The notes under the pieces were generated by a model. That model did not search any database and was not told the origin of the DNA. It was given only the letters and a program-made list of their open reading frames with translations. A DNA stretch of 64,000 bases from a virus, in the IMG/VR virus record IMGVR_UViG_3300010883_000003, positions 32,001 through 96,000 of that record; one strand, written 5' to 3'. Shown here piece after piece: positions 30,233-60,536 of this stretch. Position 1 is the stretch's first letter. Every line of letters starts with the position of its first letter. The position numbers and the translations under genes are program-made.

Positions 30233-30261
30233 TTGAAAATAAGTTCGCGTTATGATATAAT
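30233..30261 (+). promoter_or_regulatory. sigma70-type promoter (TTGAAA-17-TATAAT, extended TG); likely leaderless transcript
   Basis: TTGAAA 30233-30238, TATAAT 30256-30261, ATG at 30267. Confidence 0.7.
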
Positions 30262-43497: not shown

Positions 43498-44193
43498 GTG
43501 AAAAAAGTAGAGCTTTATGAAGATGGTATTGGCGCAGTTGAGTATGTTGAGCATATGGGCTCTGATTTAACCATAGTCAATAGCGCCCGCGTTTCTTTTG
43601 GGAAGCATAAAGAAACGTTAGATGAGAAAGACGAAAAGCTTATCAAGTATCTTGTTAATCATAAGCACACTAGCACTTTCGAACATAACGTCGTAACTTT
43701 TCGCTTTGTAGTTCCGCTCTTTATAAGGAGCCAACATCACAGACATCGTACTTGGAGCTATAACGAGATTAGTAGAAGATACACTGACTTTGATTTAAGA
43801 TTTTACGAACCCAAAGAGTTTAGAACTCAACACAAGAGTAATCGACAAGCTTCCAATCTTTCAGATTTAATAAATCCAGATATGTCTATGGGCACTGAAG
43901 CAAACTTTTCTGCATCATACATGGTTGAAAGTCACCACAAACAATCGCTACACATCTATAATAGACTCATCGAAGAAGGAGTCTGCAGAGAGCAAGCTAG
44001 GGGAGTTCTTCCACAAAATCTCTATACAGAGTATTACGGTACTTGCAATCTTTCAAATCTTTTAAAATTTATTGAGCTACGTACGCATACAGGAGCTCAG
44101 TGGGAAATACAACAGGTAGCGAACGCCTGCATGGACATAGCTGAATCACTCTGGCCGACAGCTGTAGGCACCTATAGAAAATCGAGAAAATGA
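43498..44193 (+). CDS. thyX: flavin-dependent thymidylate synthase
   Basis: IVNSARVSF, HTSTFEH, RHRTWSYNEISRRY, REQARGVLP, LR...AQWEI; GTG start. Confidence 0.95.
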   Translation: MKKVELYEDGIGAVEYVEHMGSDLTIVNSARVSFGKHKETLDEKDEKLIKYLVNHKHTSTFEHNVVTFRFVVPLFIRSQHHRHRTWSYNEISRRYTDFDLRFYEPKEFRTQHKSNRQASNLSDLINPDMSMGTEANFSASYMVESHHKQSLHIYNRLIEEGVCREQARGVLPQNLYTEYYGTCNLSNLLKFIELRTHTGAQWEIQQVANACMDIAESLWPTAVGTYRKSRK

Positions 44194-45516: not shown

Positions 45517-46266
45517 ATGAAGAAAAAGTCTCGCATCGCGACAAGAAAGGTTCGTTTTCTAGAAGCAGAATTACGAATGTTGCAAAAATATAGTATGCAA
45601 GTAGACGCTCTTTATAGTGAGTATTCTGTAGAATATACTAAAGATATGTCAACCCTGTTAGAGTCTGCCGCGAATATAGCACCGAGACCAGAAGATCCTG
45701 AGCGCCCAACCGATCAAGACAACCATGATGGGGAGACTATTAACATAGACCCAACTAAATCGTCACAAACTTGGCGTAAGACAGCTGATGGCTGGGTTCT
45801 TGAAGACTCTGAAGACTTGATTGATGAAGACGAATATCACGAGCCAGACAAGCAAGCTAGAGACGTTCCTCATTGGGCAAAAAAAATATACAAAAAAATT
45901 GCTTTAGCTTCGCATCCTGACCGAACGTCGAAAGATCTCCAGCACAAAAAACTAAAAGAAATCTTTCTACAGTCTGCAGCAGCAATGGATTCCGGCGACT
46001 TTTCAAAGCTTCTTGGTCTCGCTTTAGAGATAGACATTGATATAGCTAGTGACAACGACGTAGATATGTTGCCTCTTTTGTCAAGCAGAGTCTCCGCTTT
46101 AAAGCAAGAACTATCTGGGACTGAATCAACTCCCGAGTGGCTCTGGGGAGAAGGATTAGGAACACCTGAAATAAGGTTCCCGCTAGCCAACCTATTTCTT
46201 ACCAGTAAAGGCTATAACTTGAAAAGAGACGATATACTGGATATAATCCTCCAAATAGAGGAATAG
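45517..46266 (+). CDS. protein with J-domain-like segment
   Basis: KKIYKKIALASHPDR (HPD motif). Confidence 0.6.
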   Translation: MKKKSRIATRKVRFLEAELRMLQKYSMQVDALYSEYSVEYTKDMSTLLESAANIAPRPEDPERPTDQDNHDGETINIDPTKSSQTWRKTADGWVLEDSEDLIDEDEYHEPDKQARDVPHWAKKIYKKIALASHPDRTSKDLQHKKLKEIFLQSAAAMDSGDFSKLLGLALEIDIDIASDNDVDMLPLLSSRVSALKQELSGTESTPEWLWGEGLGTPEIRFPLANLFLTSKGYNLKRDDILDIILQIEE

Positions 46267-46269
46267 CAA

Positions 46270-46500
46270 ATGATATTAGGAAATCTAGTAATGTTTCAAG
46301 CCCCAGTCGATGCTTTTGATAATAAGGGTGAACCGTTTTACATCTATCCCGGGAACTCTGCATTAGTACTGGGATATAATGAATATGACATCACACTACT
46401 GGTTTGTGGAGAGGTTTTGTATACCTCAGTATCTAATGAACGAAACATTAAAAAACTCAGGACAACAAACGTGAATCTTGGGGTTCACAAAATTATTTAA
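46270..46500 (+). CDS. hypothetical protein
   Basis: 76 aa, GAGG SD. Confidence 0.55.
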   Translation: MILGNLVMFQAPVDAFDNKGEPFYIYPGNSALVLGYNEYDITLLVCGEVLYTSVSNERNIKKLRTTNVNLGVHKII

Positions 46501-46527
46501 GATTACACAAAAATCCTTACTAAATCG

Positions 46528-46556
46528 TTGAAAAAAGCTCTTGTTTATGGTATAAT
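46528..46556 (+). promoter_or_regulatory. sigma70-type promoter for dnaE
   Basis: TTGAAA 46528-46533, 17 nt, TATAAT 46551-46556 with TG extended -10. Confidence 0.75.
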
Positions 46557-46585
46557 AGTATTAATCACAACAGGAGCTTTCTCAT

Positions 46586-49500
46586 ATGAGCAAATCACTT
46601 ATCACCCCACCGAATAAGTTCATTTCCCTACATTCGCATGACGGATTCAGCACTTTTGATGGACTTGGATATCCACAAGAGCATATCGATTATGTCATTG
46701 AGAATGGTATGGACGGCTGGTGTCTCACAAACCACGGTCATATGAACTCGTTTGGTCATGCATTTCTACATGCTGAGAAGATCCAGAAAAGAGGTGGCTT
46801 GTTTAAGTTCGTTCCAGGATGTGAAATGTATGTCCATCCTGATCTTGATGCGTGGAAGCTCGACATGGAGATTAATCAGGCTGCCAAGAAAGGTGATAAA
46901 GAGTCTCTTAGAATTCTTCGTGCCCAACGTGAAGCAATTGCAACTCCCTTAACGGCTATCACCGACGGAGATGATGAGATTGTAGATATCGGAAAGTCTG
47001 AAGTAGGTCTCACGGTGGAGAATGAGGAAGAGACTAAGTCTGGAAAATTTTATGACCCGATTAAGCGCCGCCACCACTTGGTTGTTCTTCCAAAAACGTC
47101 TATTGGTTTACAGCGGCTATTTCATCTTGTCAGTAGAGGGTACAGAGAGGGCTTCTATCGCTTTCCCCGTATTGACTATAAGATGTTAAGGGAAGCAGCT
47201 GAGGGTGGCCATCTGATGGTATCAACAGCTTGTATCGGTGGCCCAATAGCATACGAGGTGTTTAAGCACGCTCAACAAGTGGAATTTGATGAGCTAAAGC
47301 ATAATCTAATGGATGATGAGTCGTTTCGGTCTAAGGTTATGACTGGTGTAGGTAATGCATATCAAGGTCTCGTAGATGCTGTTGGGATTGATGATGTACA
47401 TCTAGAGATACAATTTAATAAGCTTCCCGCTCAGCACCTTGTGAACCGTGCAATTATTGAATTTGCAAATAGCAACGGTTTAAATGACAAGATAGTTGTA
47501 ACTACCGACTCACATTATGCTCGCCCAGAGCATTGGCGTGAGCGTGAGCTATACAAGAAGTTAGGCTGGTTGAACTATAAAGAATTTGACCCCTCCAAGC
47601 TGCCACAATCAAGAGAGGATCTTAAGTGCGAGCTGTATCCGAAGAATGCTCACCAGCTTTGGGATACATATCTTGAGACCACTGAGGATATGTCATTCTA
47701 TAATGACGAGGTTGTGAAAGCAGCCATGGAATTGCCACATCAGATTGTCCATGAAAAGATTTCTGCGATTGTTCCTGACCGTACGATGAAACTACCTTCG
47801 TACGTTGTTCCTGAGGGAATGACGGATGATAAGGCCTTGCTTGAAGCATGTAAGAAAGGACTAGTTTATCGTGGTCTTGCCGATGACCCGAAGTACGTCG
47901 AAAGAATAAAGCATGAGCTCAAGATCATCAAGGATAAGAAGTTCTCCAGATACTTCCTAACAATGGAGGCAATCATTAAAATCGCCAAGAAAGCTATGCT
48001 TGTCGGTCCAGGCCGTGGGTCTGCCGCTGGTAGTCTCGTTGCGTATGTCCTCAGGCTTACCGATGTTGACCCGTTCGAGTATGACCTCATGTTCGGTCGC
48101 TTTCTAAATCCGTCTCGAGAAGGTGCTCCGGATATCGACACCGATGTAGGTGATCGAGACATGCTTATTAATATGATGAAAGACAAGTGGGGCGATGAGA
48201 ACATCATTCCAATCTCTAACTACAATACATTCAAACTCAAGTCACTTGTTAAAGATATTTCTCGCTTCTACGGCATCCCATATACCGAAGTGAATAAGGC
48301 ATTAGCGTCTGTCGAGGATGACGTAAAGCGCGCGGTCTTTAAGCAGGGGACAGATAAGAACTTGTTCGTACTGTTATACGAGGATGCTATGTCACACTCA
48401 AAGGTGTTTAGAGAATTTATCGAGTCTCATCCAGAAGTAGCCGCCCCGATTCAGGTTCTGTTTAAGCAGAATAAGGCTCTTGGTCGTCACGCTGGAGGTG
48501 TAGTTGTCGCGGAAGATATAGCTGAAAGGATGCCGCTGATCAAGGCTCGAGGCGAGTTACAAACACCTTGGGCGGAGGGTATGAACTATAAGCATCTTGA
48601 GACATTCGGATGGATTAAGTTTGACCTCCTCGGCTTGGAAACACTAAGGGTGATCCAGCGTACTATTGAGTTAATCCTACAAAGAAAAGAAGGTATTGAA
48701 AATCCATCGTTTGAGCAAGTCTATGACTGGTTTAATAACAACATGGATCCAAAAGTACTTGATATGGATGATCAGCATGTATACGAGCACGTCTACGCTA
48801 AGGGTCGCTGGGCTGGAATCTTTCAGCTTGCTGGTCGAGGTGCACAAAACTTATTCAAGAGAGCCAAGCCAAAGAGCATCATCGATATTGCAACGCTAAC
48901 GTCAATTTATCGTCCGGGCCCACTTACTGCGAAGGTTGATAAGCTCTACATCGATGCGAAGAATAACCCTGATGACATTGATTATGGTCACCCGTTAATT
49001 AAAGAGGTGCTAGAAGAAACATACGGCTTGATTGTATTCCAAGAGCAGATCATGAAGCTATGCTCTGTGGTGGCTGGCTTCCCTGAGGAGGAAACAGATA
49101 CGGTTAGACGTAGTATTATGAAGCGTAAAGCTTCCGAAGCAGCAGAGTCGCTAGCTAAGGCTAGGGCAATCAAAGAGAAGTTCGTAGCTGGCTCTGTAAA
49201 GAACGGTGTTGACGCTCAGTTAGCCGATGACCTATATGAAAAGATTCTATTCTTTGCAGGGTATGGGTTTAATAAGTCTCATGCCGTGTGTTACGCGATT
49301 GATTCATATTACTGCGCTTGGTTGTTAACTTACTTCGAGGAAGAGTGGTTATGCGCATATCTTGAAGCAATGTCAGGTAACGATAAGAAGCGAGCTAAGG
49401 CTTTCGCTGAAGTAAAGGCTCTTGATTATAGGGTTGTACCACTTGATATTAATTATGCCACGAAGAACTGGACTATTCTTGAAGGTAAGAAGTTCATGCC

Positions 49501-50200
49501 GTCGCTCTTATCATGTAAGGGTATCGGTGAGTCAGCGGTCGATGAGCTTGTTGCGAATAGACCGTATGAAAGTGTTAATGACTTGTTGTGGACAGACGAA
49601 GGTAAGTGGAGGCATTCAAAATTCAATAAGCGCGCTATGGAAGCATTAATCAACATCAGGGCGTTTGAGTCAATGGATTTAGTTGGTAAAGATAAGACTT
49701 TCGAGAGCTACAAGCACATGCATGAAGTTATTATTAATAAGCAAAATGATATTAAGAAGTGGACCAAGAGAGATCCGCAACGTGGAAAGAACAACTACAA
49801 TGAGCTGCTGTTAGAGTCGCAAGGTATCGGACCATGGTCTCGCCGCGAGATGGTTGAAAATAGCGTAAAGCATTTTGGATCGTTTAACGCATCGACTCTT
49901 GTAAGCGAAGAAATACAAGAAAGACTAGCAGCAAAAGATGTACGTTGTATTGATGAAATTGACGGACATGATGTATACTGGTTCTTGGTATCTGATGTCA
50001 AGGCAAAGCTTACGAAAAACAAAAAGCCATATCTTCTGGTTACAGCAACAGGACTGGGAGGTAAAAACTTTAGAATGTTTTGTTGGGGATGGGATGGACA
50101 AACTGAACTTCCGCTATACAGCTTATGCTTGGCAGAGATTAAGAAAACAGACTTTGGATTCCAAACTTCTATGAGTAAAGTCAAGCTTCTTCGTATATGA
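46586..50200 (+). CDS. dnaE: DNA polymerase III alpha subunit (family C)
   Basis: PHP domain LHSHDGFSTFDG, TNHG, GCE, TDSHY; GPGRGSAAGSL, RFLNPSR..PDIDTD, HAGG, KFDLLGL, GIFQL, YRPGPL, FQEQIM, YGFNKSHA; C-terminal OB fold. Confidence 0.96.
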   Translation: MSKSLITPPNKFISLHSHDGFSTFDGLGYPQEHIDYVIENGMDGWCLTNHGHMNSFGHAFLHAEKIQKRGGLFKFVPGCEMYVHPDLDAWKLDMEINQAAKKGDKESLRILRAQREAIATPLTAITDGDDEIVDIGKSEVGLTVENEEETKSGKFYDPIKRRHHLVVLPKTSIGLQRLFHLVSRGYREGFYRFPRIDYKMLREAAEGGHLMVSTACIGGPIAYEVFKHAQQVEFDELKHNLMDDESFRSKVMTGVGNAYQGLVDAVGIDDVHLEIQFNKLPAQHLVNRAIIEFANSNGLNDKIVVTTDSHYARPEHWRERELYKKLGWLNYKEFDPSKLPQSREDLKCELYPKNAHQLWDTYLETTEDMSFYNDEVVKAAMELPHQIVHEKISAIVPDRTMKLPSYVVPEGMTDDKALLEACKKGLVYRGLADDPKYVERIKHELKIIKDKKFSRYFLTMEAIIKIAKKAMLVGPGRGSAAGSLVAYVLRLTDVDPFEYDLMFGRFLNPSREGAPDIDTDVGDRDMLINMMKDKWGDENIIPISNYNTFKLKSLVKDISRFYGIPYTEVNKALASVEDDVKRAVFKQGTDKNLFVLLYEDAMSHSKVFREFIESHPEVAAPIQVLFKQNKALGRHAGGVVVAEDIAERMPLIKARGELQTPWAEGMNYKHLETFGWIKFDLLGLETLRVIQRTIELILQRKEGIENPSFEQVYDWFNNNMDPKVLDMDDQHVYEHVYAKGRWAGIFQLAGRGAQNLFKRAKPKSIIDIATLTSIYRPGPLTAKVDKLYIDAKNNPDDIDYGHPLIKEVLEETYGLIVFQEQIMKLCSVVAGFPEEETDTVRRSIMKRKASEAAESLAKARAIKEKFVAGSVKNGVDAQLADDLYEKILFFAGYGFNKSHAVCYAIDSYYCAWLLTYFEEEWLCAYLEAMSGNDKKRAKAFAEVKALDYRVVPLDINYATKNWTILEGKKFMPSLLSCKGIGESAVDELVANRPYESVNDLLWTDEGKWRHSKFNKRAMEALINIRAFESMDLVGKDKTFESYKHMHEVIINKQNDIKKWTKRDPQRGKNNYNELLLESQGIGPWSRREMVENSVKHFGSFNASTLVSEEIQERLAAKDVRCIDEIDGHDVYWFLVSDVKAKLTKNKKPYLLVTATGLGGKNFRMFCWGWDGQTELPLYSLCLAEIKKTDFGFQTSMSKVKLLRI

Positions 50201-50253
50201 TTAGCTTGGTACAAAAAGTCTACACTTATTAACAGATGGAGTAAAAAAGTAAC

Positions 50254-51273
50254 ATGCACTTAGGTCGATACAAAAACTTTACAGAATGCTATTTAGGCCT
50301 TCTAGACAAAGTTATGAATGAGCCCCAATACGAGTCCGCACCCAGGGGTCAGAATATCAAGGAGATCTTAGGCGCATCATTTACGATTGATAACCCTCGA
50401 GATCGAATTCCATATGTAGTGGCAAGAAAGTTTGGAATGAGCTATATGGTTGCTGAGCTGGTTTGGTATCTGTCCGGAAACAACAGGACTGACTGGATAT
50501 CTAAGTACTCTGCGTTTTGGAAGAATATTAGTGATGATGGTATCACCGCAAACTCGGCATACGGCGCGCGTCTATTCAAAAGACATTCTTCAATTGCTCA
50601 AGGAAGATTCACACAGCTAGAATATGTGGTTAATGAATTAAAGAGTGATCCAGATTCTCGGCGTGCCATAATGCATCTTAGAGTACCTGACGATTCTATT
50701 GACGCAAAGCTTGATGTCCCATGTACACTGGCGCTACAATACTTCATAAGAGACGGTGAGCTACATCAGGTAGTTAATATGAGAAGCTCTGATTTAGTTT
50801 TCGGAATTGCATATGACGTTCCTGCATTCACAGTATTCCAGGAAATGATCGCGAATGAGTTAAATGTAGGGCTAGGAAGTTACACACATGTTAGCAATTC
50901 CTTACACATTTATGAGACTCATTTTGATATGGTCAATAAAATACTGGAGCCTGATAATATCGACAAGTCGATAAATTTACATCAGACACACGGCCCGATG
51001 CCATCACTTCCTGGATCTATCGATCAAACGGCTACTGACGTAGATAGAGTCTTTGCGTTTGAGGGAGATCTACAGACTGATGAGTCATTTGAAGCTGTAT
51101 TAAATACTTTGCAGCGCTGGTACCATGATTATGGCTCTTCATACTTTTACGATTGGGCAAAGGTCTTAGCTTCCTCAAGACTAAGAAAGCTTGGACTAAA
51201 AGCAGACGCGAATAAAACACTTACAACAACAAAATTCACGGGATACTCGTTTAACGCTAAGAGGAAAAATTGA
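50254..51273 (+). CDS. thymidylate synthase-fold enzyme, predicted dCMP hydroxymethylase (T4 gp42-like)
   Basis: AEL.WYLSG, NSAYG, DSRRA, catalytic PCT, MRSSDLVFGIAYD (Asp at the ThyA Asn177 position), SLHIYE.H. Confidence 0.8.
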   Translation: MHLGRYKNFTECYLGLLDKVMNEPQYESAPRGQNIKEILGASFTIDNPRDRIPYVVARKFGMSYMVAELVWYLSGNNRTDWISKYSAFWKNISDDGITANSAYGARLFKRHSSIAQGRFTQLEYVVNELKSDPDSRRAIMHLRVPDDSIDAKLDVPCTLALQYFIRDGELHQVVNMRSSDLVFGIAYDVPAFTVFQEMIANELNVGLGSYTHVSNSLHIYETHFDMVNKILEPDNIDKSINLHQTHGPMPSLPGSIDQTATDVDRVFAFEGDLQTDESFEAVLNTLQRWYHDYGSSYFYDWAKVLASSRLRKLGLKADANKTLTTTKFTGYSFNAKRKN

Positions 51274-52415
51274 TGCAGCAAGAATATGACTATTTAATCG
51301 TTGGCGCCGGCTTATTTGGCGCTACATTTGCAAGAGAAATGACAGATGCTGGATATAAATGTCTTGTTATAGACAAACGCGAACACATTGGTGGAAATGT
51401 ATATTCAGAAAAGCGTAATGGTATCGATGTTCATGTCTATGGCGCCCACATCTTTCATACGAATAATGACGGGATCTGGAACTACGTAAATCGATTTGCA
51501 ACTTTTAATAACTACATTAATAAACCAAAGGTGAGATTTGGGGACAAGATTTTTTCGTTTCCGATTAACTTAATGACACTTCACCAGCTGTGGGGTGTTA
51601 CTTCGCCCGCAGAAGCAGAGGCAAAGCTTAAGGAAGTCCGTATTCCTTGTGAAAATCCAGACAATCTTGAAGACTGGATTCTGTCACAGGTCGGTAGGGA
51701 AGTTTATGAAACTTTCATTAAGGGTTATACGATGAAGCAATGGCAGCGTGATCCTAAGGAGCTGCCTGCATCTATTATTAAGCGATTACCCATTAGAATG
51801 GTGTTTGAAGAGAACTACTTTTTTGATAAGTACCAAGGTATTCCTGTAGAAGGCTATACAGCGATGGTTGATAACATGCTTGACGGTATTACGGTAAAAA
51901 CGGGAATAGATTACTTTGCTGATAAAGAACACTGGAATGGTCTTGCAAACAAGATTATATTTTCTGGAAAGATTGACGAGTATTTTGACTTTCGCTTTGG
52001 TGAACTCGAGTATAGAACACTACGTTTTGAACACGAAGAACTAGAAGGTGATTTTCAGGGCAACGCTGTTATAAACTATACACATCCTGACACACCGTTT
52101 ACTCGTATTCTGGAGCATAAGCATTTCCAGCCTCAAACAGCCGGTAAGATTAATAACACTATAATCACCAGAGAATATTCTGATGAGTATAAGAGGGGTA
52201 AGACGCCCTATTATCCGATTAATGACGACAAGAATACCAAGATGTACAAAAAGTATGAGCACCTTGCTAAGAATGAAGGTGGCGTAATTTTTGGTGGTCG
52301 ATTATCTGAATACAAGTATTATGATATGCGTCAAGTTATTGGATCTGCGCTCGTAAAAGCTAAAAGAGAGCTTGAAAACCAGGCAGAAATAGGTTATAAT
52401 AGTCTTACTGATTAA
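51273..52415 (+). CDS. glf: UDP-galactopyranose mutase
   Basis: IVGAGLFGA, HIGGN.Y, YGAHIFHT, YQGIP..GYT, L.YR.L.F, TRI.EHKHF, PYYP, GRL.EYKYYDM; TGATG coupling to the upstream gene. Confidence 0.95.
   Translation: MQQEYDYLIVGAGLFGATFAREMTDAGYKCLVIDKREHIGGNVYSEKRNGIDVHVYGAHIFHTNNDGIWNYVNRFATFNNYINKPKVRFGDKIFSFPINLMTLHQLWGVTSPAEAEAKLKEVRIPCENPDNLEDWILSQVGREVYETFIKGYTMKQWQRDPKELPASIIKRLPIRMVFEENYFFDKYQGIPVEGYTAMVDNMLDGITVKTGIDYFADKEHWNGLANKIIFSGKIDEYFDFRFGELEYRTLRFEHEELEGDFQGNAVINYTHPDTPFTRILEHKHFQPQTAGKINNTIITREYSDEYKRGKTPYYPINDDKNTKMYKKYEHLAKNEGGVIFGGRLSEYKYYDMRQVIGSALVKAKRELENQAEIGYNSLTD
52372..52400 (+). promoter_or_regulatory. internal sigma70-type promoter upstream of the glycosyltransferase
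   Basis: TTGAAA 52372-52377, 17 nt, TATAAT 52395-52400, inside the 3' end of glf. Confidence 0.65.
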
Positions 52416-52425
52416 GGAGAGCAAT

Positions 52426-53481
52426 ATGAAAGTACTTTATAGTTTTTGGGGGTTTATTACTCCTCTTGAAAAAAATAGCATTGTCGATACGCCTGATGGA
52501 GAGAGAGGCAATCGAGTTGACTGGGTCAATGAACTTCTTAAGCGCGGACATACACCTATTCAGCTTCAAAAAATGAGGGATGATGAACAGTATCCGGGTG
52601 TTGAGTATGATGCCTCTGGGTACCCGGATGGTGATGTGTTATATGTTGAGTGGCGTTGGCCCACATATAAGAATTCTGGTGAGCATGCTGTAGAACCTGA
52701 TTATAATAGACAATGCGCAGTGCTAGATTATTATCATGACCAAGGCATTCCGATTGTAATTGTAGACGGTGATCTTAAGATGACACCTGAAGAAGAACTT
52801 AGGTGGCCAAACGCTATCTTAGCTGATGCGTGTGTAAACCCTCAGCACCAGACGCGTAAGAGGATTACGATCCCATGGTGCAATTACATGAAGCGTTATT
52901 TTGACCCTGTTGAGTATTCATACAACTACACTTACGTCGGTAATAATTACGAGCGTGAAGACCCTTTCGCGAAATACTACACAGGTCCAAGCGCTGCTTT
53001 ACGCTCCCAAGGCATCCAGACTATGATTTACGGAAACTGGCTTAGCAAATCTCCTGAGAGAATTGATCCAGCCGTCTTGCTAGCTCAAACACCTAGCGTA
53101 GCTTTTGGCCCTCGGCTAGCGTACAAAGACATTTTCAAGGCTCTAAATGAGTCGATCGCTGTTACTCATATTACAAAACCTTCGTATACTCCTTACGGAA
53201 ATATTACAGGCAGATTTTTTGAAGCAATCAAGAGTAACGTCCCGGCGCTGGTACCAGTAGAGTTTCAACACGCTGTTCCAGTGGGACTAGCAGATAAGTC
53301 ACTGCTGGTAGAGAGTACCGAAGATGTTGTTAGAAAAGTTAAATGGTTAACTACACTGGACGCGTCATCACGTAAAGCTTTAGTCGATGCCCAGGAAGAG
53401 GCTCTGAGGACAGTGATTAATCCTTCACCTGAATATAGGACCGATCTGCTAGAACACATTCTAGGGGACTACAGAGCATGA
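52426..53481 (+). CDS. GT-B glycosyltransferase resembling T4 DNA beta-glucosyltransferase
   Basis: 351 aa; YVGNNYERE, GIQTMIYGN, NITGRFFEAIKSNVPALVPVEF and LVESTEDVVRKVKWL align by eye with T4 BGT segments recalled from memory. Confidence 0.7.
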   Translation: MKVLYSFWGFITPLEKNSIVDTPDGERGNRVDWVNELLKRGHTPIQLQKMRDDEQYPGVEYDASGYPDGDVLYVEWRWPTYKNSGEHAVEPDYNRQCAVLDYYHDQGIPIVIVDGDLKMTPEEELRWPNAILADACVNPQHQTRKRITIPWCNYMKRYFDPVEYSYNYTYVGNNYEREDPFAKYYTGPSAALRSQGIQTMIYGNWLSKSPERIDPAVLLAQTPSVAFGPRLAYKDIFKALNESIAVTHITKPSYTPYGNITGRFFEAIKSNVPALVPVEFQHAVPVGLADKSLLVESTEDVVRKVKWLTTLDASSRKALVDAQEEALRTVINPSPEYRTDLLEHILGDYRA

Positions 53482-53996
53482 AGATTGCGTTCATAGGTCC
53501 TGACATGACAGGTAAGTCTAACATTGCAAAAGAGCTTTCAAACCGATTAGAGCTCCCGGTTTTTAAGAACTCTGGAGAATGGAAAACACAGCTGGATAGC
53601 GCTGACTACTTCTTGAACTTGCTTAAGTTCGGCGGTCCGTTTCTCATGGATTTTATAACCCAAACAAACATCAGTGTTATACTTGATAGATTTTATCCTT
53701 GTGAGCTAGTATACGCCGACGCGTTTAATAGGGAAACAGATATGTCTGCAATAGCATGGATGGATAGAGAATTTACAAAAGCTGGTGGAAAGTTTATCGT
53801 CTGCTTAAGGAAAGACTACAGCGGTTTGGTCGATGATCAGTATCCTGACCAACTGCCAACATCTATGCTGGAGAAACTAGATGAACTATATCGTACATTT
53901 TGTGATACCACAGAATGTGAATATCTTGTTTTGGAAACTGATGACTTTGATTTAGACAGACAGGTTTCAGATATTATTAAGTTTTTAGAAAAATAA
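53478..53996 (+). CDS. P-loop dNMP kinase (thymidylate kinase-like; candidate modified-dCMP kinase)
   Basis: GPDMTGKS Walker A and ILDRFYPCELVY; ATGA overlap with the GT gene. Confidence 0.8.
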   Translation: MKIAFIGPDMTGKSNIAKELSNRLELPVFKNSGEWKTQLDSADYFLNLLKFGGPFLMDFITQTNISVILDRFYPCELVYADAFNRETDMSAIAWMDREFTKAGGKFIVCLRKDYSGLVDDQYPDQLPTSMLEKLDELYRTFCDTTECEYLVLETDDFDLDRQVSDIIKFLEK

Positions 53997-54010
53997 GGAG
54001 AGTATTTATT

Positions 54011-55015
54011 ATGACGTTTCGTAGAGCATTAGTCACTGGGTGTTGCGGGTTTATTGGCGCGCACGTTACCCGCTTGTTGGTAAACGAAGGATGGTATGTA
54101 GAGGGAGTAGATGACTTATCAAATGGAGATCTCGCTGCCATCTCAGATCTTAAGTTCCGCGCAGTCCATGAAGGATTGCTTGGTATGCTTGAGAAAACAG
54201 ACTTAAAGGCCGAAGCTGGCGGGCTTATGGTCGTCACCGGAGATTTTGCTTCTCCAGCTATGTTACAAAGGGTCGAAGAGGGTAGATACGATGTTATTTT
54301 TCATCTAGCGGCAAATCCAAGAGTTGAGTTTTCTGTCAAGCATCCTGCCTTGACAACTCATCATAATATTCAGAAGACTGTCGAACTTATGACTTCTGCA
54401 AGAGATAAGATAGATAGATTTGTCTTTGCATCTTCGTCCGCATGCTATGGGAATGTTGAAGTCTTACCAACTGTTGAGGGAAGTGTTACTGATAATCCTA
54501 CGTCACCGTATGGTCTTCAAAAGCTAGTAATAGAGCAATTCGGTAAGCTATACGATAGTTTATATGATATGGATTTCGTGGCTCTTAGGTTCTTTAATGC
54601 GTATGGACCAGGCCAAGATGGCACAAGCCCGTATTCTACAGCGATCTCCGCGTGGTGCACTCGTCTTAACAATGGTGAGCCTTTGCGTAGCGACGGCGAC
54701 GGCCAACAAACTAGAGACATGGTCTATGTTGAAGATTTAGCAAGTGCTATGTTGTCGGTCGCTAATCATCCAGAGCGTATTGGGTTCGATGTATTCAACG
54801 TTGGAAATGGAGAGTCTTTTAAAAATAAGCAGATATTAAGCTACCTTGTGGATAAATTTCCAAAAGCACAGATTGACTATGCTCCCGAGAGACCAGGCGA
54901 TGTAAAGCATACTCTGGCCTCAATCTCTAAAATTCATGACGCCATCGGCTGGAGTCCAGAAGTACAGTTTTGGGATGGCCTAAATAGAACGCTAGCTTGG
55001 TGGAAGCTTCTATGA
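54011..55015 (+). CDS. NAD-dependent nucleotide-sugar epimerase (GalE/WbpP-like)
   Basis: VTGCCGFIG, DDLSNG, HLAA, FASSSACYG, SPYGLQK (YxxxK), LRFFNAYGP, QTRD.VYV.D, RPGDV. Confidence 0.9.
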   Translation: MTFRRALVTGCCGFIGAHVTRLLVNEGWYVEGVDDLSNGDLAAISDLKFRAVHEGLLGMLEKTDLKAEAGGLMVVTGDFASPAMLQRVEEGRYDVIFHLAANPRVEFSVKHPALTTHHNIQKTVELMTSARDKIDRFVFASSSACYGNVEVLPTVEGSVTDNPTSPYGLQKLVIEQFGKLYDSLYDMDFVALRFFNAYGPGQDGTSPYSTAISAWCTRLNNGEPLRSDGDGQQTRDMVYVEDLASAMLSVANHPERIGFDVFNVGNGESFKNKQILSYLVDKFPKAQIDYAPERPGDVKHTLASISKIHDAIGWSPEVQFWDGLNRTLAWWKLL

Positions 55016-55446
55016 ACAGATGCAGCTGGCCAGGTACTTCTTCTAAAGAAGAAAAGCCTTGGGGACATGAAATATCATGGACCGGTTTATTTCACGGGAA
55101 AGAAATTTTTATTAAATCTGGGTTTAGGACAAGTCTAAAGTTTAACGTACAAAAAAATGAATTACTATACGTCCAGTCAGGAAGAGTTATCGCCGAATAT
55201 GCAGATGAAGGTCACTTTAAAGACTCAAATAAATGTCCAGCTAGTGCAAGAGAACTGCTTCCGGGGGATATACTAAATGTCCAAGCCGGCTGTCCCTATC
55301 GTCTATCTGCGCTGGATAACAGTATTGTTTTCGAAATATCTGACCGCGGAGCTTTCCGCAGAGTTATAATTGAAGATGATTACGGTAGAGAATCTAAGGA
55401 CTCGAGCCAAGAGAAACTAATATTTAAGCCTCTAATAGGGCAATGA
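55012..55446 (+). CDS. cupin, mannose-6-phosphate isomerase C-domain-like; metal His residues apparently lost
   Basis: EEKPWGHE, RTSLKF, KNELLYVQSG, PYRLSA, IEDDYGR; ATGA overlap. Confidence 0.7.
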   Translation: MNRCSWPGTSSKEEKPWGHEISWTGLFHGKEIFIKSGFRTSLKFNVQKNELLYVQSGRVIAEYADEGHFKDSNKCPASARELLPGDILNVQAGCPYRLSALDNSIVFEISDRGAFRRVIIEDDYGRESKDSSQEKLIFKPLIGQ

Positions 55447-55480
55447 AAAAAACACAATCAATGTCTATAATGGAGATAGT

Positions 55481-56377
55481 ATGACTGTAATGGATCCAAA
55501 TTCGGTTAACGCCGTGATATACCACGCTGACTGTACTGACGGTTTTGGCGCCGCATATTCTGCATGGAAGTGTTTAGGAAATCGAGCAGAGTATTACCCG
55601 TGTAAGCACGGAACAACGCCTCCTGATGTTAAAGGAAAGAATGTCGTTATACTAGATTTTTCTTTTGATAATAAAACTACAAAGAAAATGATTGAGGATG
55701 CTGCCGCCTTAATAGTAATTGACCATCATAAGTCTGCAGTCGTTGAACTACATGACATACCAAACACGTTATTTGATATGACAAAGTCTGGAGCAATTCT
55801 TTCATGGGAATGGTTCCATCCGGGTAAAGAGCCTCCGAAGTTCATTCGATATATTCAAGATAGGGACCTGTGGAAGTGGGAACTAGAGTATTCTAAAGAG
55901 TTTTCCGCCGCATTTGATATGATTCAATTTGAGTTCGAGGAATTTGAAAAGTTCGAAGATGACTCTGTATTTGATGATGCCTGTAAGCGCGGCTCGTACA
56001 TTCTTGCGTATAGTAAGACTGTGGTAAAGAAAGTTTGCGAAAAAGCCCAGCCTCGAAAAATGGACGGAAAAGACGTGCTAGTCGTAAATGCTTCTCATTG
56101 GATGTCTGAAATCGGCGCTCGTCTTGCTCCTGATTGTGACTTTGCCTTGATTTGGTATTGGGATCATGAGTCTAAAAACACTAAGGTAAGTTTAAGGGCG
56201 TTCCATGACGCCGCAGACGTTTCTGAGATCTCCAAAAGGTTCGGCGGCGGCGGCCACAGGAAGGCAGCTGGTTTTCAGCTGTCCGCAGATAAGCATATCG
56301 AGGATATTTTTGACCAACCAAAAAAGGCGTCTAGGTCAAGACGCGCTTCTACGAAAAGTAAGGATTCGAATGAGTAA
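55481..56377 (+). CDS. DHH/DHHA1 phosphoesterase
   Basis: YHADCTDGF, ILDF, IDHH, SGA.L.W, IQDRDLW, SLR, FGGGGH..AAGF. Confidence 0.88.
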   Translation: MTVMDPNSVNAVIYHADCTDGFGAAYSAWKCLGNRAEYYPCKHGTTPPDVKGKNVVILDFSFDNKTTKKMIEDAAALIVIDHHKSAVVELHDIPNTLFDMTKSGAILSWEWFHPGKEPPKFIRYIQDRDLWKWELEYSKEFSAAFDMIQFEFEEFEKFEDDSVFDDACKRGSYILAYSKTVVKKVCEKAQPRKMDGKDVLVVNASHWMSEIGARLAPDCDFALIWYWDHESKNTKVSLRAFHDAADVSEISKRFGGGGHRKAAGFQLSADKHIEDIFDQPKKASRSRRASTKSKDSNE

Positions 56378-56909
56378 GATTTATTCAACAATTATGGCCG
56401 ATCCACCGTGGTACCAACGCGGAGGCGGAAAATCAAAGCGCGGCGCGGATAGGCATTATGACATTTTAAAAGAGCATGAAATTAAAGCAGTGATGTCTAA
56501 AATGTTACAAGGCAAAGTTGCTGAAAACGCTCATATGTATATGTGGGTTGCAAATAATCACCTTGCTGAAGGTTTACGAATTCTAGAACATCTAGAGTTC
56601 AGGTATATAACCAACTTAGTATGGGCAAAGCCAAGCTTTGGACTAGGGAGATATTTTCGCGGACAGCACGAGATATGTTTATTTGCCACAAGAGGTAGAG
56701 GGTTTTCTGTTCGATCTGAAGCTAATAATGTTTCTACACTCATCGGTGGTAGTATGATCAAACCGACCAAGCACAGCACAAAGCCGCAAGAAATATACGA
56801 CTTAGTAGAATCTAGAAGCAGAGGAAGCTATCTTGAACTGTTTGCCAGAAACAGCCGACCCGGCTGGGATTGCTTGGGTAACGAAGCACCTAGCGAGGAA
56901 AATGAATGA
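56370..56909 (+). CDS. MT-A70 family N6-adenine methyltransferase
   Basis: IMADPPW, MYMW, W.K...GLG.YFRGQHE.CLFA.RG, HS.KP, YLELFAR..RPGW..LGNE. Confidence 0.9.
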   Translation: MSKIYSTIMADPPWYQRGGGKSKRGADRHYDILKEHEIKAVMSKMLQGKVAENAHMYMWVANNHLAEGLRILEHLEFRYITNLVWAKPSFGLGRYFRGQHEICLFATRGRGFSVRSEANNVSTLIGGSMIKPTKHSTKPQEIYDLVESRSRGSYLELFARNSRPGWDCLGNEAPSEENE

Positions 56910-57316
56910 GGGCATCATGGGATGACGTCTGGATGGACTTCGCTTATCTAATAGCTAAGCGCTCCTATGACCCAAGATATCAGGTCGGATCTGTTATTGT
57001 TACCGATACTAATACACAGGTCTTGGCAGTAGGATATAACGGCAATTACTCTGGTGGCCCTAATGAGGTAGAGTCTACGTTACCAGGTCAATCAGGAATG
57101 ATACATGCAGAAATTAACGCATTGATAAAACTTGATTATAATAACCCTAATAAGAAAATTATGTACCTTACGCTTAGTCCGTGTAGAGGCTGCGCAAAGG
57201 CAATTATAAACGGGGGAATATCTGAAGTGGTTTATCATAAACAATATAGAGATACCTCTGGTATAGAGCTACTACAGTCAGCCGGAATAAAAGTTCGTCA
57301 GCACTGTATGGAGTAA
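56906..57316 (+). CDS. dCMP deaminase-like zinc deaminase
   Basis: IAKRS.D...QVG, GYNG, HAEINA, TLSPCRGCAK. Confidence 0.9.
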   Translation: MRASWDDVWMDFAYLIAKRSYDPRYQVGSVIVTDTNTQVLAVGYNGNYSGGPNEVESTLPGQSGMIHAEINALIKLDYNNPNKKIMYLTLSPCRGCAKAIINGGISEVVYHKQYRDTSGIELLQSAGIKVRQHCME

Positions 57317-57373
57317 GACTCCTTGCGCGTGTATATTTAATGATGATACTAACTTTATGTGGAGTTTAATAGA

Positions 57374-58780
57374 ATGAAAAAAGCCTTAATAGAAAGCATA
57401 TCTAAGCAGTGTATAAAGCTCGTTTATAGATCTAGATTAAATGATCTCACTACAGCAGCACTTAGCGAAGGAATGACAGATGGAATTCTTTTACAGGAAG
57501 CGTTTACAAGCGAGGACGCGAACGAGTTAGAGGCTGCCACGAAAGAAATGTCTGCGGTAATTGGTTCTTTAGAAAATCGTCTTGCTGATGCCGGCGAAGG
57601 CTGGGCACCGGTTATAGACTCTTTAAAGTCAGCAGCTGGCAATTTAGATAGTAAAGCAATCGCTCAAATGGCTCTTAGCGGCGAAACCAAAAAATTAGCT
57701 AAGGCGTCCACTGAGTTCACAAAGTCTTTGCAAAGCGTAGCGGCAGAAACGGCTGCAGTCCTTGCAGCCGTAGATGGCATAAAAAAGAACTTATCGAATT
57801 TTGAGAAAGATGTTGGTGATAAAGGTGGTGAGACCATCGCAGCGTTATCGGACTCAATCGAGAAGTTCCCAGATATCTCTAAGCTAGATAAAGGTATAAG
57901 CAGCGTGTATCAGATACCAAAGTGGTTTGATTCCGCTTGGGCTGACGGCTCGAAGGCAGCCGAGAGCGAAACAGAGGGGGGCTTTTTTAAGAAAGCAATG
58001 GCATTTGTTGGTGGTATGTTTAAAGCCGATAAGACTGGCCGCTTAGTTGATGCGAAAGTGTTAGCTGATGCTGTTAAGGCAACGTCTTTCACCGCGTTAA
58101 TGGATCTGGATGTGCAAGGTGAAGTAGCAGCCTTAACTCAAGGCGCTGAAACTGCTGGTACCGAGTCAACAGAACTGGCTGCCGCCGGCGCTGGTGGTGC
58201 TGAAGGTAGCGAGGGTGGTGAAGACGACGCCGGCGGCAACGAAACCGAAGACGGCGTTACTGTTGCTACAGAAGAAGAAGCAGAAGAAGAGCAAGCTGCC
58301 GCTGAAGAAGAATTAACTGCCGCCGCTGAAGAAGTTGTCGCAGAGCCTGAGTCACCAGGCGTAGCTATCGCAAACGCTCTTGATACTTGGGCTTCCTCGT
58401 TATCTAAGTCTTCACAGTCTGCATTAGCAGCAAAGAAGAGGTTAGACAGTCTTAAGACAGGTGTTGCTGCCTCTCTAGAGAAAGCAGCTGCTGCGGTTGA
58501 ATCTGAGGTTGCTGGTGCTGTACAGGCTTGGCGAGCAGAAAACGAAGAAACGCTAATGAAGAGTAAAAGGTTCGCCAAGAAGAATTTTGATGCGCTTGAA
58601 AAAGTCATTCCTCAAATTGCGTCAGTTATGTTAAAGAAAACATCTGAGACTAAGATAAAAATGACGAAAGGCATGGTACGTAAGTCTGTCTTTAATTACC
58701 TCGATAAGCAATTTGCGAATGAAGGTATCTTATTTGAGTCAAAAAGATGGCAGTCTCTAGCAGGTATGGGGAGAAAATAA
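57374..58780 (+). CDS. Ala/Glu-rich hypothetical protein, candidate internal head protein
   Basis: GGAG SD before ATG 57374; C-terminal FESKRWQSLAGM resembles the scaffold C-terminus. Confidence 0.7.
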   Translation: MKKALIESISKQCIKLVYRSRLNDLTTAALSEGMTDGILLQEAFTSEDANELEAATKEMSAVIGSLENRLADAGEGWAPVIDSLKSAAGNLDSKAIAQMALSGETKKLAKASTEFTKSLQSVAAETAAVLAAVDGIKKNLSNFEKDVGDKGGETIAALSDSIEKFPDISKLDKGISSVYQIPKWFDSAWADGSKAAESETEGGFFKKAMAFVGGMFKADKTGRLVDAKVLADAVKATSFTALMDLDVQGEVAALTQGAETAGTESTELAAAGAGGAEGSEGGEDDAGGNETEDGVTVATEEEAEEEQAAAEEELTAAAEEVVAEPESPGVAIANALDTWASSLSKSSQSALAAKKRLDSLKTGVAASLEKAAAAVESEVAGAVQAWRAENEETLMKSKRFAKKNFDALEKVIPQIASVMLKKTSETKIKMTKGMVRKSVFNYLDKQFANEGILFESKRWQSLAGMGRK

Positions 58781-59188
58781 ATGTCTTCTACTAATACAAG
58801 GTTTCTATCCGAAATGCTACGAAACCAATATGTCGGTCGTCTTAACGAAGTTATAAAAGAAGCTGATGTATTCGATGATGAAGGCAATATGATATTGTCA
58901 CCTGACTTAAAAGTGAAACACCGTGACTCTGGTTATGAGTATACTATAGATCATGTTGAAGGTGATACCGACAATGAGATACAAATTTATCTTAGGTCAC
59001 CTGAGTCACCGAGAGTTCACCCGGCCCCTGAAGAAAAGTCGCTGTTAGGCGAACCGCGACAGGAAGATATACTAGGTGAGCAAGATCCCGCAGCAAATAT
59101 AGAGGAAGAGTTACCAAGCGAAGATCAAGAAGATGTGATCTTTGTCATCAACCAACAAGAATTTGAAAAAGAGTATGAGGTAGATTAA
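58781..59188 (+). CDS. acidic hypothetical protein
   Basis: 135 aa, abuts both neighbours. Confidence 0.7.
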   Translation: MSSTNTRFLSEMLRNQYVGRLNEVIKEADVFDDEGNMILSPDLKVKHRDSGYEYTIDHVEGDTDNEIQIYLRSPESPRVHPAPEEKSLLGEPRQEDILGEQDPAANIEEELPSEDQEDVIFVINQQEFEKEYEVD

Positions 59189-59916
59189 TGTCAACAATCA
59201 GTGATAAAGAGATTATGAAAGTTATTAGCGAAACGTTAGGTGTCGATGACATGTCTTCTCGTAAGAGCAAGCCTTTAAATGAGGCATACGTACTTGAGCC
59301 TAAGAAGTATGACATTCAAACCGATATCTTAAGCCAAAAAGCAATAAGTGCAAATATCGAAGACTTTAAGTCTGCTGTTGATATAGTAAATGAAATATCT
59401 GCGAAGCTTGATTCTGTTGATAGAAGCAATTCTAATCCAAAAGACGCTGCATTCCGGGAGCTAAAATCAGCAGAAGCCTACAATCTAAACTATGTTTTTC
59501 TAACGTCTCTTCATTTTGATAATATCGCAGACCCTACCTCAAAAGTTATGATGGATTCATTGTCATACATGAGATTGTCAAGAGACTTCGGAACGTTTGA
59601 AGATTGGCAGAAAGATTTTATTGCTTGTGCAATGGGGGCTCGTAATGGATATGTTGCGACTGTGTTCAACGGATCGCTGAACCGCTATATGAATGTCATG
59701 GTCGATGAAAATTCTTCTGGTCCTATGATGAACTGTATTCCCGTAATATGCCTGTGTGTTAAAGATAGCTTTTATTTCCGTGATTACTTAAATGACCGTA
59801 AAGCCTACATCTTCGCAATGATGAAAGAGTTAAGGTGGTCTTTAATTGAGGAAAGATTTAAGCGCGCCGACAAGCTTTCAAAAATCATGTCTAGGCCATT
59901 AGGAGATAACTCATGA
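59188..59916 (+). CDS. Fe/Mn superoxide dismutase-like protein, metal ligands degenerate
   Basis: LHFDNI, RDFGTFEDWQKDF, PVICLCVKDSFYFRDYLNDRKAYI...L.W..IEERF match the SOD C-domain, but DxWEH is replaced by CVKDS. Confidence 0.7.
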   Translation: MSTISDKEIMKVISETLGVDDMSSRKSKPLNEAYVLEPKKYDIQTDILSQKAISANIEDFKSAVDIVNEISAKLDSVDRSNSNPKDAAFRELKSAEAYNLNYVFLTSLHFDNIADPTSKVMMDSLSYMRLSRDFGTFEDWQKDFIACAMGARNGYVATVFNGSLNRYMNVMVDENSSGPMMNCIPVICLCVKDSFYFRDYLNDRKAYIFAMMKELRWSLIEERFKRADKLSKIMSRPLGDNS

Positions 59917-60536
59917 AAAGAGAACAACTAAAGAATTATTTTAGGAAGCAATACAGCTTGCTAGCAGAGCAAGATGAAGAAGATCCATTCGCGACAGATG
60001 ATGCTGCAGCCGACGAAGAGCCAGATGATGCTGCAGCCGACGAAGAGCCAGCCGACGATACTGGTGAAGAAGGCGAAGACGAAGACGAAGGCGAAGGCGA
60101 AGATGAAGATGAAGTAGAGGTTGATGAGGATGATGAACAGCGTTTTCAAAAGTCTATAGATGATCAACTCCAGGCACTCCTAATAGACATTGAGGCTGAC
60201 TCTATCAAGTCTGCAGTAGTACAGCAAGAAAGCTATAGCCTAAAGCAAATGTATATAAATGAGTCTGGCGATGTACCTATCGATACAGATAAGTTTGCAT
60301 CTGAGGTTGCCAGGCTAATATTAAATTTTGACGCTTTCCTTGATCTTGAAACGATGCTATTATCTAAAGTTAGAAGCTTTCTGGTAGACAAGCATGGCGA
60401 AGAAGCTGCTGACGAAGTTGAGAAATTATTATCCGACCGTCATGATCTTAAGCGCAGAGAAGAAGTCGAAGAAGCAGATGATATAGAAGAGCAGGTTCCT
60501 ATAGCTGTAGGCGCTACTCCAGGGGCGGGTGTGTGA
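59913..60536 (+). CDS. highly acidic hypothetical protein
   Basis: 207 aa with an Asp/Glu tract; N-terminal QLKNYF...LLAE. Confidence 0.7.
   Translation: MKREQLKNYFRKQYSLLAEQDEEDPFATDDAAADEEPDDAAADEEPADDTGEEGEDEDEGEGEDEDEVEVDEDDEQRFQKSIDDQLQALLIDIEADSIKSAVVQQESYSLKQMYINESGDVPIDTDKFASEVARLILNFDAFLDLETMLLSKVRSFLVDKHGEEAADEVEKLLSDRHDLKRREEVEEADDIEEQVPIAVGATPGAGV
59997..60050 (+). repeat. exact 27-bp tandem duplication (DDAAADEEP x2)
   Basis: gatgatgctgcagccgacgaagagcca at 59997-60023 and 60024-60050. Confidence 0.95.

Follow-up and report, generated by a model that had tools for sequence, protein, structure and literature searches.

A distant homologue of T4 beta-glucosyltransferase in a predicted cytosine-hypermodification module of uncultivated myoviruses

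An open reading frame (ORF) of 351 amino acids in the IMG/VR virus record IMGVR_UViG_3300010883_000003 directly follows a gene for UDP-galactopyranose mutase (Glf), and raises the question of which sugar its product transfers and to which acceptor. The window analysed here is a stretch of 64,000 nucleotides, bases 32001-96000 of this 116,688-bp record, which is judged 37% complete, and the product of the ORF (52426..53481, + strand) is referred to as GT351. Phages are classically shielded from restriction enzymes and CRISPR by sugar-coated 5-hydroxymethylcytosine (hmC or 5hmC), which type IV systems and DNA glycosylases in turn target. An original prediction, made from the letters of the window, held that GT351 is a nucleic-acid glycosyltransferase related to the beta-glucosyltransferase (BGT) of phage T4 and retuned to a furanose donor. 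The relationship to BGT was borne out as distant homology, and GT351 is very probably a glycosyltransferase of 5hmC, either in DNA or in a nucleotide.

The homology was assessed by profile comparison. The GT351 family includes 216 proteins at E <= 1e-3 (259 representatives at 50% identity), is almost exclusively metagenomic and contains no member with a functional name. It was represented by a 39-sequence alignment (A1) and by a broad alignment of 239 of the 268 collected proteins, with lengths of 300-420, plus the query. The BGT family consisted of 42 collected proteins, 35 of which were aligned (A2), and the T4 BGT sequence was taken from GenBank AF158101. In hhalign comparisons, A1 matched the single T4 BGT sequence with a probability of 43% (E 2.5e-4) and A2 with one of 95.5% (E 1.3e-8), while the broad profile gave 96.4% with the single BGT and 98.7% (E 2.6e-16) with A2, the latter over 289 columns that pair residues 20-346 with 16-349. 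The same broad profile gave 0.9% with the T4 alpha-glucosyltransferase (AGT; 0.5% in another AGT comparison), 2.9% and 0.2% with E. coli WaaG and WaaB, respectively, 0.3% and 0.1% with p047 and p046 of phage RB69 (0.4% and 0.5% in the other comparison) and 0.2% with RL38J1_215 of Rhizobium phage RL38J1, the RB69 and RL38J1 templates being single sequences of limited power. With BGT at 98.7% and the controls at 2.9% or less, the profiles thus separate BGT from other GT-B enzymes. A phmmer search with T4 BGT found at least 16 matches below 1e-3 among the 268 GT351-family proteins (best 3.5e-6), whereas T4 AGT had none below 1e-3 in the same set (best E 0.49), and neither GT351 nor the A1 members had a Pfam match to the AGT model PF11440. 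A cluster made up entirely (100%) of PF09198, the Pfam BGT family, is among the language-model neighbours of GT351, with a score of 0.97. The three motif pairings with BGT that had been proposed in the original prediction, GIQTMIYGN with GLNIEFFGN, NITGRFFEAIKSNVPALVPVEF with FITLRVWETMASDAVMLIDEEF and LVESTEDVVRKV with YVNNRAELIDRV, were all reproduced by hhalign. These sequence comparisons make GT351 distantly homologous to T4 BGT. Its family forms a new and far diverged branch within an already known class of enzymes, the phage 5hmC DNA glycosyltransferases of the BGT lineage.

Searches with the single sequence were less informative about this origin. Only chance matches (E 0.57 and above) were found by phmmer among PDB sequences, a tblastn search of 50,697 phage records found nothing at 1e-3, and no family for GT351 was found in PHROGs or NCBIfam. 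The only Pfam match of GT351 was to PF13524 (Glyco_trans_1_2) at residues 193-320 with 22 bits and E 1.7e-4, which is below the 25-bit gathering cut-off; this model matched 27 of the 39 A1 members at E <= 1 (best 6.6e-11), and T4 BGT has the same weak match at 197-324 (21.3 bits). The AF2 model of GT351, built from A1, had a pLDDT of 89.9 and a pTM of 0.87 and showed two Rossmann-like halves, and on this model GT351 is a GT-B fold glycosyltransferase of about 350 residues. The structure comparison that had been proposed placed T4 BGT first, both in Foldseek (E 1.5e-9) and in VIA (Z 21.9, rmsd 3.7, 306 residues aligned, 16% identity). It did not set BGT apart, since sucrose-phosphate synthase, BshA, PimA and T4 AGT were tied with BGT at Z 20-21.3 (AGT, also of the GT-B fold, at Z 20.6 in VIA) and the BGT representative was only fifth (Z 20.6) in a structure search independent of Foldseek. 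Similar viral models in BFVD were mostly unnamed or generic glycosyltransferases. Given the ties with GT4 enzymes that act on lipids or small molecules, the structure alone decides nothing, and these ties go halfway towards the refutation named in the original prediction, in which the best structural matches would be lipopolysaccharide or protein glycosyltransferases.

The genetic context points to cytosine. The thymidylate synthase (TS) homologue encoded 1.15 kb upstream of GT351 has the MilA CMP hydroxymethylase as its best solved relative (7e-43), and is 30% identical to T4 gp42, its D188 lying opposite D179 of gp42. Like gp42, it carries the signature D143/C146/D169/D177 (DCDD, in E. coli ThyA numbering), which agrees with the cytosine-hydroxymethylation setting that had been proposed for GT351. 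According to the available text of PMC13326640, Asp177 marks cytosine specificity, an acidic residue at position 143 marks hydroxymethylation, and Asn169 marks the newly described 5-hydroxy-dCMP synthases. The linkage was examined in a sample of 56 related viral loci, the transferases of which form 35 clusters at 90% identity. A TS homologue was present within 10 kb in 51 of the 56 loci and in 33 of the 35 clusters, reaching down to transferases of 26-29% identity, and three of the five loci that lack one end early on that side. All 51 linked TS homologues have the D/C/D/D signature, whereas the proven 5-hydroxycytosine synthases RB69 p048 and RL38J1_216 read E/C/N/D in the same kind of alignment. 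The signature therefore separates the 5hmC type from the 5-hydroxycytosine type, and its presence in all 51 predicts 5hmC rather than 5-hydroxycytosine. A 5-hydroxycytosine system like those of RB69 and RL38J1, also considered for this locus, was ruled out by the D169 signature and by the lack of similarity between the transferases.

The conserved TS linkage is the main reason to assign GT351 to cytosine hypermodification rather than to the glycosylation of a surface or a protein. The latter explanation would make GT351, Glf and the neighbouring 4-epimerase-like enzyme an auxiliary cassette for a host surface glycan or a virion protein. The lipid and small-molecule enzymes among the top structural ties and the acidic character of GT351 would fit such a cassette, as would the position of Glf at the very end of Streptococcus suis phage records, which suggests host-derived polysaccharide genes. 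It is nevertheless very improbable, given that the TS linkage is accompanied by a small P-loop kinase, that the homology is specific to BGT and does not extend to WaaG or WaaB, and that GT351 sits within a replication and nucleotide-metabolism block that includes DnaE, ribonucleotide reductase, ThyX and dCMP deaminase. That GT351 belongs to a module for 5hmC hypermodification is almost certain.

The two domains of the enzyme differ in how well BGT is recognised in them. The C-domain alone matched the BGT C-domain with 96.8% (E 2.3e-10) and, in the other run, 99.2% (E 1.7e-19), cross-domain controls being at 0.4% or less. Within it, R177, Y254, R263 and E266 align with R195, Y261, R269 and E272 of BGT in the comparison of the broad profile with A2; all four are invariant in A1, and so are their counterparts across the BGT family, except R195, which is nearly invariant. 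We take the four BGT residues to be ligands of UDP. For the N-domain, the DGD motif (D114-G115-D116) had been suggested as a possible site of the catalytic Asp. D114 and D116 are invariant in the 39 family members, as is D100 in the BGT family, and D116 is aligned with D100 in both full-length and low-stringency comparisons. D100 is named as the catalytic residue of BGT in the available text of bioRxiv 10.1101/2023.12.21.572611 and also in the title of PDB entry 1nzd.

Several results weigh against extending the BGT assignment to this half of the protein. The N-domain alone was not significant against the BGT N-domain (0.6%; 11.9% with E 0.0025 in the other run), and PF09198, which covers only the N-terminal domain (residues 1-166), matched none of the 39 A1 members at E <= 1, although T4 BGT as positive control gave 9.4e-98. 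Since D116 lies inside this non-significant part, its equivalence to D100 rests on a collinear but weak alignment; D116 is plausibly the counterpart of D100, with the alignment of the two residues standing and the recognition of the surrounding domain failing. From the same comparisons, the acceptor-side N-domain appears to be one that has diverged beyond sequence recognition and is unlike any characterised one. GT351 is acidic, with an isoelectric point (pI) of 5.3, a net charge of -10 and an N-domain pI of 4.87, as compared with a pI of 9.05 for T4 BGT.

The acidity of GT351 and the dissimilarity of its N-domain to the DNA-binding domain of BGT would suit an enzyme that glycosylates free 5-hydroxymethyl-dCMP (5hm-dCMP), -dCDP or -dCTP before replication, and the available text of PMC13326640 leaves nucleotide and DNA undistinguished for the first transferase of RB69 and DLP3. 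Acidic members also occur in the BGT family, however, where the median pI is 6.27 and the range 4.7-9.4. Furthermore, the characterised BGT-type enzymes all act on DNA, as far as the T4 annotation and the available text of bioRxiv 10.1101/2023.12.21.572611 extend, and with a nucleotide acceptor the polymerase would need to take a bulky glycosylated dNTP. A free-nucleotide acceptor is hence considered improbable, and GT351 probably acts on DNA.

A furanose donor, as in the original prediction, is plausible for this phage, where Glf is adjacent. Together with the 4-epimerase-like enzyme of the short-chain dehydrogenase/reductase (SDR) type encoded downstream, the nearest NCBIfam models of which are GalE and TviC (both under cut-off) and the solved relatives of which are UDP-hexose 4-epimerases, Glf provides an obvious supply line from UDP-glucose (UDP-Glc) via UDP-galactopyranose (UDP-Galp) to UDP-galactofuranose (UDP-Galf). 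With these two neighbours, the donor is probably not UDP-glucose. Glf was found near the transferase in 10 of the 35 clusters, in three separate identity tiers of 72-89%, 38% (L048) and 29% (L051/L056). The 25 other clusters have no Glf within 10 kb, and among ten large Glf-less contigs (43-84% complete) only one has Glf elsewhere. With Glf missing near most clusters, the GT351 family at large is not bound to a furanose. The sole distal Glf, in the record behind L019 (G001:C1:107187-108287, - strand), is 60% identical and has one in-frame TGA; this could reflect gene decay, an error in sequencing or stop-codon recoding. In a clade of about 45% identity (L031:11010-14740), the transferase gene is followed first by two different SDR epimerase/dehydratase genes flanking a 264-aa ORF, and after these by genes for a TS homologue, a thymidine kinase and dCMP deaminase; this arrangement suggests a different sugar in this Glf-less clade. 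The arrangement in the family is one of a constant core module with clade-specific sugar genes.

The same counts bear on the alternative that GT351 acts on 5hmC DNA with a pyranose donor, UDP-glucose or UDP-galactopyranose, while Glf feeds another, unseen transferase, such as one adding a second sugar, or has another purpose. In addition to the 25 Glf-less clusters and the nine of ten large contigs without Glf anywhere in their available part, the 4-epimerase-like SDR is a more constant sugar gene than Glf, the Glf of RL38J1 lies far from the base-proximal transferase, and with the record only 37% complete a second, UDP-Galf-using glycosyltransferase could lie outside it. Against a pyranose donor, Glf lies directly between the TS homologue and GT351 in this phage, adjoins the transferase in the three identity tiers, and also adjoins a bona fide BGT homologue in phage ATCCB. 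No other glycosyltransferase family was detected when PF13524, PF00534 and PF00535 were sought in the 116.7-kb record, a negative that carries little weight because the PF13524 search missed GT351 itself. A pyranose donor is therefore regarded as unlikely, though it has to be reckoned with, and UDP-Galf remains the tentative assignment for this phage, about which doubt slightly prevails.

Phage ATCCB offers a parallel. In this cultured Lactobacillus phage (MK504445, L061:3337-6392; ATCCB_0045-0047), a DCDD TS homologue, a BGT-family protein and Glf are encoded side by side, and the same chemistry is predicted. ATCCB_0046 matched the BGT profile with 100% (E 1.4e-48) and the GT351 family in the C-domain only, with 93.6% (E 2.1e-7), and is an ordinary member of the BGT family. 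The gene order, TS-GT-Glf, differs from that in the phage studied here, and no adjacent epimerase is annotated. The paper describing ATCCB makes no mention of the trio, and literature searches that combined galactopyranose mutase or galactofuranose with either hmC or hypermodification gave only the paper on galactosyl-5-hydroxycytosine in RL38J1 and an unrelated one. It is possible, if held with slightly more doubt than the donor itself, that enzymes of the BGT lineage were recruited more than once for adding galactofuranose to 5hmC, and that this lineage and ATCCB carry galactofuranosyl-5hmC. Glf genes also occur in T4-like Aeromonas phages (19 records; L063, NC_042019, 5992-10774), where they are followed by genes for three hypothetical proteins of 318-348 aa; those adjoining Glf in Aeromonas phage AS-gz showed no relation to GT351 or BGT (2.9% or less).

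In the proposed pathway, the upstream TS homologue would convert dCMP to 5-hydroxymethyl-dCMP, which the downstream P-loop kinase and host enzymes would raise to the triphosphate, and the phage DnaE polymerase would insert the latter into DNA. GT351 would then use a UDP-sugar to glycosylate the 5-CH2OH group of hmC in DNA, with R177, Y254, R263 and E266 predicted to hold the UDP. D116 would be the likely general base, implying an inverting mechanism as in BGT. The donor favoured for this phage and close relatives is UDP-galactofuranose, which the neighbouring 4-epimerase-like SDR and Glf would make from UDP-glucose, and the product would be galactofuranosyl-5hmC, the sugar probably serving as a guard of the phage DNA against host nucleases. 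On balance, GT351 is considered reasonably likely to glycosylate the phage's own DNA and to represent a large branch of the T4 beta-glucosyltransferase lineage in uncultivated viruses.

The ORF and its promoter were likewise confirmed. The ORF begins with ATG, and the AAGGAG sequence that precedes it overlaps the stop codon of glf (52413-52415). An internal promoter of the form TTGAAA-17 nt-TATAAT had been noted at the end of glf. Loose sigma-70-like sites are not enriched in 46000-60000 (26 found as compared with 29.7 +/- 5.2 expected), whereas the exact pattern TTGAAA-N17-TATAAT occurs four times in the window, always on the + strand, against an expected 0.05, and four copies were reached in none of 100 shuffles. 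Of the 12 distinct upstream sequences from the close clade, 8 keep TTGAAA-17-TATAAT (or TACAAT) before the start of the transferase gene, with differing spacers, and the other four (L011, L015, L016 and L030) lack it. The excess of the exact pattern and its conservation in relatives show that the promoter is a real, recurrent phage element, and this pattern is probably the early or middle promoter class of the phage. The other exact copies, at 30233-30261, 46219-46247 and 46528-46556, all on the + strand, each have an A as the next base after TTGAAA; one of them is found shortly before DnaE, another 5 nt before the listed start of the ORF at 30267.

All long ORFs of the window are on the + strand (Table 1). 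The genes around GT351 are ordered DnaE, TS homologue, Glf, GT351, P-loop kinase, 4-epimerase-like SDR, cupin, DHH protein, MT-A70 methyltransferase and dCMP deaminase, with stop/start overlaps at the TS/Glf and the GT/kinase junctions; the kinase, the start of which overlaps the GT351 stop, accompanies the transferase in most loci.

Table 1. Features of the GT351 locus and of other genes referred to in the text (window coordinates)
Feature	Position	Strand	Remarks
ThyX	43498-44193		PF02511 1.1e-49
Thymidylate synthase (TS) homologue, predicted dCMP hydroxymethylase (5hmdCMP synthase)	50254..51273	+	PF00303 2e-35
UDP-galactopyranose mutase (Glf)	51270..52415	+	TIGR00031 equivalog 366.8 bits, cut-off 303.75 passed; PF03275 3.6e-78
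Sigma-70-type promoter, TTGAAA (52372-52377)-17 nt-TATAAT (52395-52400)	52372..52400	+	within last 44 nt of glf
Shine-Dalgarno AAGGAG	52414..52419	+	6 nt before ATG; read from sequence
GT351, 351-aa GT-B glycosyltransferase, distant BGT homologue	52426..53481	+	ATG start
D114-G115-D116 (DGD)	52765..52773	+	candidate catalytic base D116
C-terminal donor-binding Rossmann domain, residues 166-351	52921..53478	+	homologous to BGT C-domain
172-aa P-loop kinase-like protein, predicted 5hm-dCMP kinase	53478..53996	+	weak AAA_28; phrog_761 'thymidylate kinase' 3.4e-7
SDR NDP-sugar 4-epimerase-like enzyme	54011..55015	+	PF01370 2.6e-48
149-aa cupin-like protein	54997..55446	+	phrog_7851 1.8e-11
MT-A70-type adenine methyltransferase	56205-56909		PF05063 1.1e-18
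dCMP deaminase	56906..57316	+	PF00383 1.7e-20; found in most related loci

The phage is a myovirus. It encodes a major head protein, a tandem pair of tail-sheath paralogues, DnaB, ribonucleotide reductase, a 1204-aa DnaE-type polymerase, ThyX and dCMP deaminase. It has no close cultured relative, DnaE being at most about 29% identical to anything in the 50,697 phage records, and the 5-kb module had no nucleotide match by megablast. The presence of ThyX together with a ThyA-like hydroxymethylase in one phage fits a split between dTMP synthesis and cytosine modification. A search for dCTPase, MazG and dUTPase found none of them in the 37%-complete record, which is a point against the proposed explanation. 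The two sheath ORFs (10232-13420, 1062 aa, and 13455-16511, 1018 aa) match tail-sheath families in their C-terminal parts and are unusually long. The cupin-like protein is encoded after the epimerase in the close clade and also in a clade of 58-61% identity (loci L002-L025, L040), is missing there from the more distant clades, and may act as a partner in sugar modification. Some members of the close clade carry a different version of the MT-A70 gene, of only 31-33% identity. A glutamine-synthetase catalytic domain (PF00120, 1.5e-20) is present in a 335-aa protein encoded at 42054-43061, in the nucleotide-metabolism block; this protein could be an amide ligase for a further modification. A 242-aa protein with a C-terminal domain of Fe/Mn superoxide dismutase (PF02777, 1.1e-11) is encoded at 59188-59916.

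T4 BGT (b-gt, PF09198) presumably belongs to CAZy family GT63. In the available passage of PMC13216743, GT63 and GT72 are given in reverse order, and the alpha- and beta-glucosyltransferase families are treated as phage-only. GT351 shares with T4 BGT the GT-B fold, the length of 351 aa, the homologous C-domain, a full-length collinear profile alignment and a position just downstream of a dCMP-hydroxymethylase-type TS homologue, gene 42 being directly upstream of b-gt in T4. It differs in being only about 16% identical, in the unrecognised N-domain, in being acidic rather than basic and in having Glf and an SDR as neighbours, and its family is found in DnaE-encoding uncultivated myoviruses, whereas T4 belongs to the Straboviridae. 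T4 AGT (PF11440) has the GT-B fold in common with GT351 and acts on hmC DNA, and its sequence is unrelated to that of GT351.

The 5-hydroxycytosine clusters of RB69, DLP3 and RL38J1 have the same order of TS homologue, first glycosyltransferase and small nucleotide kinase, and the TS-(Glf)-GT-kinase order found here mirrors both 42-b-gt of T4 and p048-p047/046-p045 of RB69. In RL38J1, which has a Glf gene as well, galactose is the base-proximal sugar according to the available text of PMC13326640. The TS homologues of these phages have N169 and make 5-hydroxy-dCMP, in contrast to D169 in all 51 homologues here; the first transferases of RB69 and RL38J1 have no similarity to GT351, and the kinases share only the P-loop. 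GT-B enzymes of metagenomic viruses that resemble T4 BGT and glycosylate 5hmC, in 5mYOX/TET or ThyS clusters, are described in the available text of bioRxiv 10.1101/2023.12.21.572611, where mining of IMG/VR with hidden Markov models found GT-B matches adjoining TS homologues in about 28% of contigs. The GT351 family may be among these matches, and neither 'furanos' nor 'mutase' occurs in the main text of that paper.

If the proposed donor is correct, GT351 would be a DNA glycosyltransferase specific for furanoses, its acceptor domain resembling none that has been characterised, and galactofuranosyl-5hmC, for which no report was found in the literature, would be a candidate new DNA base, with phage ATCCB as its cultured proxy. 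As a matter of speculation, a transferase with another donor specificity on hmC could serve as a labelling enzyme. The 216 proteins of this family carry the BGT lineage, so far centred on the Straboviridae, into a large set of uncultivated myoviruses that encode DnaE, and the combination of one core module, consisting of an hmC-type TS homologue, a BGT-like glycosyltransferase and a small kinase, with varied NDP-sugar genes predicts a range of hmC glycans in these phages.

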